Shown here: in pieces, positions 2,432 through 32,468 of the stretch
How positions within the stretch are numbered: position 1 is the first letter of the stretch
How the letters are laid out: each line of letters starts with the position of its first letter
Origin: a virus
Virus record (IMG/VR): IMGVR_UViG_3300045988_056976
Strand: one strand, 5' to 3'
Length of the DNA: 34,360 bases
The notes under the pieces: model-generated
The model's input: only the letters and a program-made list of their open reading frames with translations
Database searches by the model: none
What the model was told of the DNA's origin: nothing
Translations under genes and position numbers: made by a program

Positions 2432-2697
2432 CCCCCCCCCTCGGAAAAACGCCCCTTGCGCCCTCGTTGCTACTCGCGGGGGTGGTTTCCATTCCCGAGA
2501 TTCTCGCATCTGCGCGTCGCCGCGCTGCGCGTGGGCGCGAGGATCGCCGGGCAATTTCAGAATAAACTGCGGTTTTGCGGGGCGGGCAGCTCCGGAAGTA
2601 CTCTTTTCCTTTTCCCACGGTTCGGGCGGCATGTCCGCCCGTCCCGCAAAGCCGCAGACGTCGGTGCCCGAATCGGGCACAGGAGGAGGTGCTGAGT
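2432..2697. other. non-coding region between HNH and terS; candidate cos region
   Basis: 266 bp without a credible ORF. Contains a C9 run (2432..2440), the GGGCGGcatgtCCGCCC hairpin (~2624..2640) and palindrome copy 1. Placement between HNH and terS is typical for cos phages of this packaging type. Confidence 0.4.
2664..2680. repeat. 17-bp palindrome GTGCCCGAATCGGGCAC, copy 1
   Basis: Exact match read in the sequence. The terS RBS AGGAGGAGG follows immediately. Confidence 0.9.
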
Positions 2698-3039
2698 GTG
2701 GCAGAGGAAAAGCGTCCGAACTACGAGCGGCGAAAGGACTACCGCGAGCTCCGGCAGTCGATGCTACAGAACCTGATCGAAAGGGATCTCGACGGGGATG
2801 TGTACCGGGACAAGGTGCAGGAGTATATGGACTTCTGGGTGCGGCGGCAGGAGCTGCGGGACGACATCGCCCGGCGCGGACTGACCGTCACGGATGACCG
2901 GGGGCGGCTGATGGAGAACCGCAGCGTGTCGCTGGAGATTCAGGTCTCCCGTCAGATGCTGGCGATCTTCACCACGCTGGGCTTTAAGGAGGACGCTCTG
3001 GCGGCTGCCGCCCGGGGCGATGATGACGATGAGCTGTGA
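2698..3039 (+). CDS. terS: terminase small subunit (P27-family-like)
   Basis: GTG at 2698 lies 8-11 nt after AGGAGGAGG. The ~113 aa protein (VAEEKRPNYERRKDYRELRQSML...YMDFWVRRQELRDDIARRGL) resembles P27-type TerS. Sits directly before terL. Confidence 0.75.
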   Translation: MAEEKRPNYERRKDYRELRQSMLQNLIERDLDGDVYRDKVQEYMDFWVRRQELRDDIARRGLTVTDDRGRLMENRSVSLEIQVSRQMLAIFTTLGFKEDALAAAARGDDDDEL

Positions 3040-30303: not shown

Positions 30304-30973
30304 CTGCGACGGGCAGATGAGCTTGACGCGGTTCTACCTGCCGGAATTCGACCCCGACACGGCACCCAGCGTGGCGGACGTGCTGATGGGCTGCTCGGAG
30401 ACACTGTGGAGCGACAACACCATCCCGCAGGACGCGCTGGGTCGTGTGCAGCTTTTGCCCGGCTCCAGCTCTCTTTACGAGATGGACGTCAAGGCATTGA
30501 AGAGCAGCATCCACAGCATCAGCTCTCTGCGCGGATTCCGCGACGCTGCCGCAGAGGACGGCGTGGATTACATGATCTTCGACTGCCCGCCGGGCTTCAC
30601 CGCAGCAAGCTGCGCCGCGCTGATGGCGGCGGACGAGGTGGTGATCCCCACCGTTGTGGACGGCTTCTCCCTGCTGGGTGTGGGCGACATGATTGCCCAG
30701 GTCGCCAGTATGCGGCAGGCTAACGCTGCCATCAAGATTGCCGGTGTGCTGATTTGCCAGTGGCACAACAGCGAATCGGTGCGGCAGGGCGAGGAGCTGC
30801 TGCGCCGGAACTGGACAGTGTTCGACACGGTGATCCGCCGAACGGAGAAGATCCCCGAGAGCACGTTCATGCAGCAGCCGGTCATGGACTACAGCCCCCG
30901 CAGCGCGGCGGCGCAGGACTACCGTGCGTGGGTCTGGGAATATCTGCACGAGGAGGTGCGCGACGATGGCTAA
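30194..30973 (+). CDS. parA: ParA/Soj-type partition ATPase
   Basis: GTG start. MRTIAIMNLKGGVGKTVTA (deviant Walker A), VLVDCDGQ, and FDCPPG motifs. Confidence 0.85.
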   Translation: MRTIAIMNLKGGVGKTVTALTLADVLRRAGKTSVLVDCDGQMSLTRFYLPEFDPDTAPSVADVLMGCSETLWSDNTIPQDALGRVQLLPGSSSLYEMDVKALKSSIHSISSLRGFRDAAAEDGVDYMIFDCPPGFTAASCAALMAADEVVIPTVVDGFSLLGVGDMIAQVASMRQANAAIKIAGVLICQWHNSESVRQGEELLRRNWTVFDTVIRRTEKIPESTFMQQPVMDYSPRSAAAQDYRAWVWEYLHEEVRDDG

Positions 30974-32468
30974 GAAATTCGACATTGGCGACTTCGCCAA
31001 GACTCTGGCGCAGCCGGTGCCCGAATCGGACACCGGGCGGGAACAGATCGAGTATATCAGCGTAGATCTGCTGGACGACGACCCGAACAACTTCTACTCC
31101 CTTAGAGATTTGGACGAGCTGGCGGCGAACATCGCCACCGTCGGATTGCAGCAGCCCATCCGGGTGCGCGACGGCGAGAACGGTCACGTGGTGATCGTCT
31201 CCGGGCACCGGCGCACGGCCGCCATCCGTATGCTGGTAGCGGATGGGCGAGACGACCTGCGGGAAGTGCCCTGCCTCCGGGAGCGCGGCGAAGTCTCGCC
31301 GGCACTGCAGGAGCTGCGCCTCCTGTACGCCAACAGCAGCACCCGCGCACTCACCTCGGCGGAGATCTCCCGGCAGGTGGAGCGGGTGCGGGAGCTACTT
31401 TATCAGCTGAAGGAGGAGGGCTACGAGTTCCCGGGTCGTATGCGCGACCACGTCGCCGAAGCCTGCAAAATCAGCAAGAGCAAGCTGGCGCGTTTGGAGA
31501 AGATCCAGAAGGGGCTGGCTTCGTGCTACCGCGACGCATGGGAGGCTGGGACGCTGCCGGAGGACGCGGCGGACGCGCTGTCCAGCCTCCCGGAGTATGT
31601 GCAGGAGCGTGTCAAGAGAGTTTGTCCGAAGACTACGCCGAGTGCCGGTCGTATACGCGACGCCGTTAAGCGCGGAGAATACCTTGCAGTTTCTTTCAAG
31701 TGCCCGGACGGGTCGACTTGCACCCATATGGACAAGTTTTTTAGGCACGATCTTAAGGCGCAAAGTTGGGAAGCCTGCGGCGGTGAGAAGTGCTGCCTAA
31801 AGTGCCGCGACGGCGGAGCGCACGATCCGTCAGGCTTCTGCGGGGCTGCTTGTGCGGAAATGTGCAGCAAGGCTCGGGAGAAATATGAGAAGGCGAAGGA
31901 AAAAAAGAAGGCGTCCGATGCCGCAGCTGAAATGAAGGCGCAGAGTGAAGCTGCCCGCAGGGTTCAGGCTGAATCTCGGCGCGTTGTGCGGGCAGCAGAT
32001 GCTGCGGGGCTGGGCGATGAGGTAGAACTGCACTATGACTATGGAGGCAGTTTAACCGTTGGGCTCTTGAGGTCGCTTAGTGATGGGACGGCACCCGACA
32101 GCGCAGTCAAATTCTACAGCCGGGGTATTCTGCCATGGCGAGCTGATGATGTCGCGAAGAACGCCAAGACGCTGCGCTGCTCCGTGGATTATCTGCTGGG
32201 GCTGACGGATGAGATCAACTCCACGGCCGCCGTTTCCGGTCAGACCGTGCTGTCGTCGTGGATGCCCGGCGGCACGACACCGGCAGAGCCGTGCGATGTT
32301 GTGGCGGACGTCGACCTCGGAGCCGGTGGCGGAGAGACGATGAGAATGACATGCTGCTGGAATGGGCGAGAATTCTGTGTAGGCAAGAAGCGAGAGCCAA
32401 TAGATATGGCGGTGGTTCGCTGGATCGCGCTGCCGCCCGTGGAAAAGGAGGACGAGAACGATGATTAA
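30966..32468 (+). CDS. parB: ParB-family protein with a long Cys-rich / HTH-remnant C-terminal extension
   Basis: ATG at 30966 follows GAGGAGG and overlaps the parA end. ParB N-terminal box IRVRDGENGHVVIVSGHRRTAA. 500 aa, longer than a canonical ParB. Confidence 0.85.
   Translation: MAKKFDIGDFAKTLAQPVPESDTGREQIEYISVDLLDDDPNNFYSLRDLDELAANIATVGLQQPIRVRDGENGHVVIVSGHRRTAAIRMLVADGRDDLREVPCLRERGEVSPALQELRLLYANSSTRALTSAEISRQVERVRELLYQLKEEGYEFPGRMRDHVAEACKISKSKLARLEKIQKGLASCYRDAWEAGTLPEDAADALSSLPEYVQERVKRVCPKTTPSAGRIRDAVKRGEYLAVSFKCPDGSTCTHMDKFFRHDLKAQSWEACGGEKCCLKCRDGGAHDPSGFCGAACAEMCSKAREKYEKAKEKKKASDAAAEMKAQSEAARRVQAESRRVVRAADAAGLGDEVELHYDYGGSLTVGLLRSLSDGTAPDSAVKFYSRGILPWRADDVAKNAKTLRCSVDYLLGLTDEINSTAAVSGQTVLSSWMPGGTTPAEPCDVVADVDLGAGGGETMRMTCCWNGREFCVGKKREPIDMAVVRWIALPPVEKEDENDD
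31017..31033. repeat. palindrome variant GTGCCCGAATCGGACAC, copy 6 (extended to 31014..31036 by CCG/CGG), inside parB
   Basis: One mismatch to the consensus, in the same right-arm position as copy 5. Read in frame as VPESDT. Confidence 0.8.

Follow-up and report, generated by a model that had tools for sequence, protein, structure and literature searches.

Dispersed 17-bp palindromes in a temperate phage genome as candidate parS-like sites of its ParB protein

What would a phage use one short palindrome for, at six places spread from the leader of its terS gene to the coding region of its parB gene? The question is raised by the IMG/VR virus record IMGVR_UViG_3300045988_056976, a stretch of 34,360 nucleotides that we refer to throughout as the window. 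An earlier note, made from this sequence, had proposed that the palindromes form either a dispersed centromere of the parS type or a family of regulatory hairpins, in a genome that encodes both ParA and ParB. Profile matches confirm the presence of both proteins, and our comparative analysis suggests that the palindromes are probably parS-like cognate DNA sites of the phage ParB. The parS-like part of the earlier proposal is supported by co-occurrence with one ParB clade, by a copy within parB itself, by palindromes on plasmids and by controls without ParB that are mostly free of sites; a centromere in the plasmid sense and the argument for hairpin selection are not supported.

The palindrome family and its ParB clade

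Four exact copies of the 17-bp palindrome GTGCCCGAATCGGGCAC are present in the window, as the earlier note had reported, and the copy at 31017-31033 differs from them by one mismatch. The copy at 25593-25609, also described as a one-mismatch variant, has two differences from GTGCCCGAATCGGGCAC (central A>G and G14>A) and counts as such only if the centre is taken as N. With up to three mismatches allowed, 0.18 copies are expected by chance, and the observed count was reached in 0 of 100 dinucleotide shuffles of the window, so the four exact copies and two variants are indeed beyond chance. Weaker matches with three mismatches occur at 14305 (minus strand) and 22645. The sites are as follows:

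Site 1, 2664..2680: exact GTGCCCGAATCGGGCAC; abuts the ribosome-binding site (RBS) AGGAGGAGG of terS (GTG start at 2698), downstream of the HNH gene
Site 2, 8847..8863: exact copy; codons 7-12 (NVPESGT) of the open reading frame (ORF) 8817-9191
Site 3, 23357..23383: hairpin with a 12-bp stem (AAGCC/GGCTT) and an exact core at 23362-23378; between ORF 23392-23835 and the integrase gene
Site 4, 24072..24094: hairpin with a 10-bp stem (GCG/CGC) and an exact core at 24075-24091; 3' of the membrane-protein ORF 24099-24770
Site 5, 25593..25609: GTGCCCGAGTCGGACAC, which fits the family consensus GTGYCCRANTYGGRCAC; leader of a leftward lysogeny-side operon
Site 6, 31017..31033: GTGCCCGAATCGGACAC; codons 18-23 of parB (VPESDT)
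Possible weak or decayed seventh site, 14305..14321: GTGTCCGTTCCGGGCAC; inside the tail gene 13615-15486, and may be chance

Checked one by one, the six gene contexts are as first described, and the flanks AAGCC/GGCTT, GCG/CGC and CCG/CGG, together with the reading frame VPES(G/D)T common to both ORFs, had been read correctly. Site 2 falls where its ORF meets ORF 8453-8836, in the head-tail connector region, and 20 nt separate site 5 from the downstream start (25573) of a small minus-strand ORF. Upstream of terS, relatives also have an orthologous site, some +5.5 to +7.5 kb from parB, and two related loci (L128 and L131) hold copies identical to site 5. The candidate seventh site has two mismatches to the degenerate consensus and is a member of an inverted-repeat pair (I22). 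On the plus strand, the central base of each of the six window copies is a purine; a conserved orientation bias was considered and rejected, since orthologous sites in relatives have the opposite centre.

The exact 17-mer was found in at least 119 IMG/VR stretches, representing about 45 or more distinct sequence contexts. Across 34 loci retrieved by ParB homology (ParB 35-84% identical), the sites generalise to GTGYCCRANTYGGRCAC, and these loci, together with phage Cormatin, MT835558 and the window, make up a set of 37 ParB-positive loci (696 kb) that contains 117 such sites against 0.004 expected from base composition, with at least one site in 35 of the 37. A wider set of 78 usable loci (1.18 Mb), obtained by a ParB N-terminal profile search and overlapping the first, contains 221 sites, with at least one in 70. 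A family site is present at the 5' end of parB in 62 of the 78 loci of the wider set and in 32 of the 34 ParB-homology loci, and this copy is retained down to about 35-40% ParB identity. The earlier note had proposed counting the motif in related phages and testing its co-occurrence with this ParB, and in both sets most loci with this ParB have the motif. Bases beyond the core are also preferred: C occurs at -2 in 52% of sites, and position -1 is preferably G or T, with A avoided (5%). This gives a full site of about 21 bp, C-K-GTGYCCRA-N-TYGGRCAC-M-G (21-bp form CGGTGCCCGAATCGGGCACCG), and the CCG/CGG and GCG/CGC flanks that had been taken as extra are not so, because they are part of this extended consensus.

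Different genomes carry different versions of the site. For example, MT835558, a phage otherwise 82-88% identical to the window and with a ParB that is 81% identical, has GTGTCCAATTCGGACAC at orthologous positions, including that of site 2, where the encoded peptide is VSNSDT. One locus (L369) contains GTGCCCATCTGGGCAC four times, one of these at the 5' end of parB, and two others (L136 and L339) contain GGTCCGA-N-TCGGACC four to five times, together with a divergent ParB recognition helix. On these sequence comparisons, site variants travel with ParB lineages and are shared within each genome. A separate observation in the window is a hairpin at 24763-24778 (GTGCCCATCCGGGCAC followed by TCTTTTTTTA), which has the outer arms of the motif with a 4-nt spacer and is one base off GTGCCCATCTGGGCAC, the variant used four times by the L369 ParB lineage; it may be a heterologous or decayed site, or a plain plus-strand terminator between the CI-like gene and ORF 24099-24770. 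In another phage group (IMG/VR loci L010, L028, L075, L083 and L087), parB contains two sites, one at the N-terminus (NVPESGT) and one about 1.2 kb downstream, right after 'DYLFGR' (DVPESGTGT).

Because ParA, ParB and several early regulators all co-occur with the motif in the phage loci, the phage data alone cannot pick the binder. Clostridial conjugative plasmids provide a second comparison. The N-terminal ~210-220 amino acids of the window's ParB match the ParB of three such plasmids at 28-33% identity, from the MAKKF start, and the plasmid ParA homologues are 27-30% identical to the window's ParA. A tblastn search of all window ORFs of at least 80 amino acids against the three plasmids returned matches for ParA and ParB only, and since these are the only window proteins with homologues there, the plasmid comparison singles them out. 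A de novo search for repeated palindromes in the same plasmids, each of 25% G+C, identified the following:

pCP-TS1 (C. perfringens): GTGTCCCC-S-GGGGACAC, five copies, at 1701 (between parA and parB), 3516 (just past the gene after parB), 38052, 45374 and 45428
LIBA6289 (C. difficile): (G)TGTCCCC-N-GGGGRCA(C), at least eight copies, one of them 22 nt after parB
pCS1-7 (P. sordellii): TGYCCCC-N-GGGGRCA, at 90 (downstream of parB), at 2505 (94 nt upstream of parA) and at three more positions

These plasmid palindromes, GTGYCCCC-N-GGGGRCAC (plasmid-type site GTGTCCCCGGGGGACAC), flank parAB and are also dispersed. Plasmid and phage motifs have a common 8-1-8 geometry with outer GTGYCC/GGRCAC, a coincidence that we estimate at roughly 1 in 2,000, and the recognition helix differs by site class, being SK(S/P)KLARL in the phages and (A/P)TQVGRY in the plasmids. 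Experiments have shown that a related plasmid, pCS1-1, needs its parB to be stable (PMC5770547). For the pCP13 family, the only published parS proposal that we found is not this palindrome: it is a different, putative 117-bp region, proposed for pBCNF5603/pCP13 (PMC4459074). The 17-bp palindrome appears to be undescribed as a parS. As controls without ParB, the F. plautii phage Chenonceau and the C. perfringens plasmid pCW3, which uses ParM, contain no sites. Two further comparisons gave little: Clostridium phage Saumur (ParAB ~26% identical) has one near-site and no clear alternative palindrome family, which is uninformative, and an L. garvieae plasmid with a more distant ParB has no related palindrome.

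Sites within ORFs always read V-(P/S)-x-(S/L)-(G/D)-T, whether in ParB, the head-tail connector, tail proteins or other proteins. At the parB site, at least 12 different hexapeptides occur across homologues (VPESDT, VSESGT, VSKLDT, VSNLDT, VSNLGT, VPKLDT and VSDLDT among them), with non-conservative exchanges of S/L, G/D and E/K. Because the DNA consensus of this site is kept while the hexapeptide changes non-conservatively, the constraint is on the DNA and not on the peptide. The evidence taken from the parB site is the share of homologues that retain the pattern; third-codon-position conservation within it was discarded as circular, the sites having been chosen by that pattern. Elsewhere across the phages, sites are placed just 5' of RBSs, in the stems of terminators, and in proteins, where they occupy linkers or the extreme N- or C-terminal tails; some abut RBSs or adjoin -35-like hexamers, and others are inside ORFs. 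We read this as sites sitting wherever a tightly packed genome tolerates a 17-bp GC-rich palindrome, and on that reading it is the presence of several dispersed copies per genome that matters, not the local context of each. The family also illustrates well how a DNA site can dictate the peptide (V-P/S-x-S/L-G/D-T) that is read from it in many unrelated proteins.

The two proteins and their genome

The candidate partners are encoded next to each other, and parA adjoins parB in all 37 relatives:

30194..30973, plus strand: parA, 259 amino acids, a Walker-type ParA/Soj-like ATPase (Pfam AAA_31, 5.9e-28; CbiA, 3e-19; PHROG 164)
30966..32468, plus strand: parB, 500 amino acids, the candidate binder

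Residues ~20-110 of ParB form a ParB_N-like CTPase domain with a GHRR box (SGHRR; GxRR type), and the helix-turn-helix (HTH) at ~140-180 is the most conserved segment of the family. Several PHROG families annotated as 'ParB-like partition protein' match it, and phmmer against the PDB returned Noc (7nfu, E = 7e-5) and Spo0J (1vz0, E = 3e-3), with the alignment running through SGHRR, and KorB (8qa8) at E = 0.48. All Foldseek hits of the ParB model belong to ParB, Spo0J, Noc or KorB, but their E-values are weak and KorB ranks low. The remainder of the protein, consisting of a Cys-rich region (~245-300), a predicted long helix (294-346) and an Xre-like 'DYLLG' element, is mosaic between phages that are nearly identical in other respects. 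More than 4,454 homologues of ParB were found, in a clade that includes PHROG 27290 ('unknown function').

The mosaicism is seen when the window is compared with L123, L128 and L131, where ParA and regulators are 96-100% identical and ParB only 58-77%, with the N-terminal 200 amino acids conserved and residues 200-420 swapped, a sign that domains of the C-terminal half are often shuffled. In addition, a 40-nt inverted repeat, 85% complementary, joins 26282-26321 and 32171-32210. An Xre-type 'RCSVDYLLGLTD' helix is encoded in each arm: the first arm belongs to the minus-strand ORF 26261-26545, the second to the region for the C-terminal part of ParB. This suggests that ParB and a small HTH regulator share a domain or have recombined.

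The window is a circular contig, with positions 1-141 repeated at 34220-34360, giving a genome of 34,219 bp and ~60% G+C, which fits episome or virion DNA alike. Its identifiable genes are those of a temperate siphovirus-type phage:

2021-2431, HNH; 2698-3039, terS; 3020-4705, terL; 4689-5900, portal
Structural and lysis block, extending to ~22 kb
Leftward lysogeny-side block: tyrosine integrase (22198-23355), ORF 23392-23835, membrane-protein ORF 24099-24770, CI-like HTH protein (24786-25106)
Rightward early block: Cro-like protein (26711-26905), regulator (26928-27380), HTH_36 replication initiator (27789-28637), DnaB (28634-29968)
End of the rightward early block, plus strand: ParA (30194-30973), ParB (30966-32468)

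Searches of the window for Rfam families and for tRNAs found neither. The parAB genes are directly downstream of dnaB, within the early replication operon. Close relatives are uncultured human-gut phages, e.g., MT835558, and a relative with a cultured host is the Flavonifractor phage Cormatin (ParB 45% identical), an inducible prophage that is integrated in the F. plautii YL31 chromosome (PMC10197239). A second relative (L277), whose ParB is 84% identical to that of the window, is present on a 139.8-kb contig where its integrase adjoins ordinary bacterial genes. Since both relatives are integrated prophages, this is a phage family that integrates.

Several further features of the genome were observed. 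A second gene resembling a replication initiator (921-1655; PHROG 3584, with a weak PF23343 REP_ORF2-G2P match in relatives) is present besides the HTH_36 initiator and DnaB, and is kept in most ParB-positive relatives. A direct repeat of 85 nt, with copies 88% identical, is found at 19857-19941 and 21023-21107. Each copy contains the T-rich tail of a strong terminator followed by a TTGACA-17-TAATAT promoter with the palindrome CCACGCA(A/T)TGCGTGG between -35 and -10, and each precedes a plus-strand ORF (19989-20525; 21070/21368-21871, HTH-like) located between the lysis genes and int. They resemble a pair of moron-type cassettes that share one operator, which is not related to the ParB motif. 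A 37-nt repeat, 84% identical, at 25671-25707 and 26625-26661 reads ...GGTGGTATGATAG... on the minus strand, resembling an extended -10 element; the two copies are probably twin leftward promoters of two minus-strand lysogeny-side operons, with the site at 25593 in the leader of the first. Three tandem 63-nt repeats (14924-15112) in the tail gene 13615-15486, and an array at 16434-16645 in the gene 15860-17815, where copies at multiples of 21 nt share a recurring GCGGCGCAGAC-type motif, resemble the repetitive segments of fibre-type proteins.

Weighing the explanations

Several points weigh against assigning the sites to ParB, or against a partition role for the pair. The assignment is drawn from co-occurrence and comparative genomics. 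In the reverse direction, from motif to ParB, 9 of 76 motif-bearing IMG/VR contigs were recovered independently by the ParB search; as the stretches are pieces of contigs, a missing ParB is uninformative there. The phage Castelnaud (ON453903) has no ParAB and contains two perfect GTGTCCAAGTCGGACAC sites, at 2000 and 16054, and MT835537, with no ParB by hidden Markov model search, contains one. Both Castelnaud sites are inside segments 80-87% identical to the ParB-positive Cormatin (ON453905) from the same host strain, F. plautii YL31; they may have come in with exchanged modules, or ParB may act on them in trans. The Pfam ParB_N match (3.7e-5, 24.1 bits) is below the gathering cut-off of 26.3, and the AlphaFold2 model of ParB has a predicted local distance difference test score of 57, being confident only for residues 110-215. 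Our survey of host chromosomes covers the matches listed. Among 115 non-redundant contexts, at least three extra complementary flank pairs are present in 22 and at least four in 17, where a naive expectation is ~1.8, perhaps ~5 allowing for the flank consensus; many of these extended contexts, and several unextended copies, precede T-runs, and part of the motif family is also behaving as terminator hairpins. A promoter scan of the window listed no promoter-like site upstream of parAB, and because relatives are integrated and parAB lies behind dnaB without such a site, a classical plasmid-partition role is not obviously needed. Since relatives integrate, by means of a tyrosine integrase, and parAB belongs to the early replication operon, a plasmid-prophage lifestyle is not indicated either, and a centromere as in P1 or in N15, the latter invoked by the earlier note, is not supported. 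This arrangement points to expression of parAB in early infection or induction rather than in stable lysogeny.

One explanation that would make the link to ParB incidental is that the palindromes function as hairpins in RNA or single-stranded DNA, i.e., as terminators, attenuators or RNA-stability elements. Predicted RNA folding gives about -12.7 kcal/mol for the core and -22 to -25 kcal/mol for the extended versions at 23362 and 24075 (-24 to -25 for the site 3 hairpin, which has a weak T-tail); a terminator scan lists 23357-23383 and 24072-24094 (plus strand) and the bare core at 8847-8863 (minus strand); and plasmid copies are often in A-run/hairpin/T-run contexts, in keeping with the T-runs and long flanks described above. 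The long stems in the window are restricted to the first two of these positions, with the weak tails CTGTCTATTT and GTGTTTATCC, whereas the other four of the six sites have no T-tail and two of the six are inside ORFs. The terminator idea therefore stands for a subset only, two of the six in the window, and none of the window sites has the GC-rich stem-loop with a direct U-tract that defines an intrinsic terminator, although a subset of sites in other phages and plasmids does. The ordinary strong terminators of this genome (19831, 20996, 22140) use unrelated stems, no Rfam family matches the motif, and terminators would not need one fixed 17-mer across thousands of phages. The arms themselves also argue for double-stranded DNA. 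The variable positions, 4/14 (Y/R) and 7/11 (R/Y), are symmetric in 69 and 92 of the 117 sites, where shuffling half-sites within genomes gives 66.8 ± 4.4 and 95.5 ± 2.8 (p = 0.38 and 0.95), so compensatory covariation in the core is absent, and in asymmetric sites, those in parB included, C.A mismatches and G.U pairs are about equally frequent on the sense strand. Once the half-site composition of each genome is allowed for, the arms show no further co-variation. We take this as the mark of a dimer that reads each half-site separately on duplex DNA, and not of selection on an RNA or single-stranded-DNA stem. The earlier argument that differing complementary flanks reflect selection for a hairpin is not supported, the CG-type flanks being part of the consensus and the core arms no more symmetric than shuffled half-sites. 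Overall, we consider a pure hairpin function improbable, and in our reading the sites were written into pre-existing terminator stems, much as DNA-uptake sequences sit in terminators in Neisseria and Haemophilus.

Two further explanations replace ParB by another factor, and we consider both very improbable, the second even more so than the first. An operator for another phage regulator, namely the CI-like protein (24786-25106), the Cro-like protein (26711-26905) or the regulator 26928-27380, would fit a 17-bp dyad with an odd centre, which is typical of lambdoid operators, three sites in the immunity/lysogeny region, and the co-occurrence of 26928-27380 with the motif in most phage loci. However, none of the three regulators has a homologue on the palindrome-bearing plasmids, where only ParA and ParB do; the window sites lack the tandem arrangement at divergent promoters of lambdoid CI/Cro operators, being single and 0.7-14 kb apart; most sites are in late genes or coding linkers, outside the immunity region; and sites persist in L137 and L142, where tblastn found no homologue of 26928-27380. 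A host-derived repeat of the repetitive extragenic palindromic (REP) type, or a host-factor site common to phages and Oscillospiraceae hosts, could account for a motif found in so many stretches with very diverse gene contexts, and for the few ParB-less phages that carry it. The matches listed by a scan of genome contigs with GTGCCCGANTCGGGCAC speak against this: among them (120 stretches), each has one palindrome except L218 and L257, with two family sites each, and all those outside Oscillospiraceae-type DNA are singletons in unrelated high-GC genomes (median 69% GC), mostly chance matches in Actinomycetota and Proteobacteria, one of them lying over a conserved VPDSGT peptide that is presumably PurF. 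The four gut-Clostridia-type stretches (L203, L218, L224 and L257) all carry homologues of the window's phage genes, Chenonceau, which shares the host, has no sites, and the AT-rich plasmids of three clostridial species have their own variant beside parAB. A GANTC (CcrM/HinfI-type) methylation target at the centre was rejected, as many family members have AANTT centres, and a cos or pac site was rejected by reasoning, since six copies, some inside ORFs, are incompatible with a unique packaging site.

A different question is what the ParB-site pair is for. It is possible, if unlikely, that the same pair has a purpose other than segregation, with ParB as a KorB-like, CTP (cytidine triphosphate)-dependent sliding-clamp regulator or silencer, or as an organiser of the genome in the lytic cycle, such that ParB made from the early operon would shut the leftward lysogeny operon, with its three sites in 2.3 kb, and/or control the late operon from the site at the terS RBS. 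Integration of relatives, for which partition is not obviously required, and the embedding of parAB in the early replication operon are in favour of this, as are the half of the sites that lie in the lysogeny module at conserved positions and the many phage sites that abut RBSs or adjoin -35-like hexamers; RK2 KorB itself has 12 dispersed operators and a ParA partner, IncC (PMC11790492). Sites deep in structural genes and protein linkers, unrelated to promoters, do not fit, ParA is strictly conserved beside ParB, which argues for transport, no KorA-like partner was recognised among the annotated neighbours, and the plasmid homologue is a proven stability determinant. The two roles, segregation of extrachromosomal genomes and KorB-like silencing, are both possible and do not exclude each other, and the three of six sites in the 2.3-kb lysogeny block are suggestive for silencing, but not significant alone.

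Returning to the sites as cognate sites of ParB, which we favour, we infer binding, CTP-dependent clamping, cooperation with ParA in partition and any regulatory effect as follows. With its conserved HTH, a ParB dimer would bind duplex DNA at two half-sites, (C-K-)GTGYCCRA, each recognised independently; with CTP bound, the clamp would close and slide or spread from six dispersed entry points, by analogy with ParB, Noc and KorB, and the whole 34-kb genome could thereby be loaded with ParB. The adjacent ParA ATPase would use this complex to position or segregate extrachromosomal phage DNA, either after infection and before integration or after induction during replication, and the complex may also damp transcription of the lysogeny-side operon, where three of the six sites cluster. 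A more speculative and somewhat unlikely extension is that ParA, ParB and multiple parS sites together make up a genome-management system for the lytic cycle and early infection, rather than for lysogenic plasmid maintenance, in a very large family of integrating gut phages. ParB clamps loaded at sites in RBS leaders, terminator stems and protein linkers would then coat the phage genome; this coat would silence the lysogeny operon and/or position, separate and protect replicating genomes, and it could act in trans on co-resident, site-bearing prophages that lack ParB, such as Castelnaud beside Cormatin in F. plautii YL31.

If the assignment to ParB is true, it defines a recognition sequence for a large uncharacterised ParB clade (>4,400 homologues), which spans abundant temperate phages of the human gut and toxin-bearing clostridial conjugative plasmids (the BEC plasmid pCP-TS1 and the TcsL plasmid pCS1), and it gives an entry into the question of what ParABS does for a phage that integrates. 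The motif would also serve as a simple metagenome marker for this phage and plasmid group, and the pair is a candidate orthogonal ParB/parS system for DNA labelling in Clostridia.

Comparison with known systems

The most familiar counterparts are N15 SopAB and the ParAB-parS systems of P1 and P7, which, like the window, pair ParA and ParB in a temperate phage. The N15 centromere is a palindrome, GTGCGACC-NN-GGTCGCAC, present at four dispersed inverted-repeat sites (PMC7205306). The window resembles N15 in having several copies of one short perfect palindrome scattered around the genome and not clustered at the par operon. Its phage family differs from N15 and P1 in that it has a tyrosine integrase and is found integrated, with its parAB genes among those of the early replication operon. 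As prophages, N15 and P1 are obligate plasmids that do not integrate into the chromosome, and they express par in lysogeny. In addition, the window's ParB belongs to another clade (500 amino acids, with Cys-rich and Xre-like C-terminal parts), and its sites lie within coding sequence, where they are read in one constant frame.

A ParB-family protein with a ParA partner and roughly one short palindrome per 5 kb, dispersed, is also found in KorB-IncC of the IncP-1 plasmid RK2, where KorB is a CTPase sliding clamp that serves both partition and long-range silencing through 12 OB operators (PMC11790492). The window differs from it, in that sequence similarity to KorB is negligible by phmmer against the PDB (8qa8, E = 0.48), KorB ranks low in the fold search, and a KorA-like clamp-locking partner is not evident among the annotated window genes. 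The clostridial plasmids (pCP13/pCP-TS1/pBCNF5603, LIBA6289 and pCS1) have true, though distant, ParA and ParB homologues and sites with the same outer bases and 8-1-8 geometry. Their sites differ in the inner bases (CC-N-GG, where the phages have RA-N-TY) and are intergenic rather than inside parB, and their helix reads TQVGRY, where that of the phages reads SKLARL.

Chromosomal Spo0J/ParB-parS and Noc with its Noc-binding sites (NBS), both of Bacillota, have site sequences unrelated to the window's (parS, TGTTNCACGTGAAACA; NBS, ATTTCCCGGGAAAT) and proteins of marginal similarity to its ParB, which has a much longer, mosaic C-terminal half. They share with it the ParB_N and HTH architecture, the GxRR box and multiple dispersed palindromes, and their 14-16 bp sites can lie inside genes, including spo0J itself, as a window site lies in parB. 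Of the components of a ParABS system, the window has a Walker-type ParA encoded beside parB and a ParB with a ParB_N fold, GxRR box and HTH, and its palindromes are candidates for the sites that ParB would bind.

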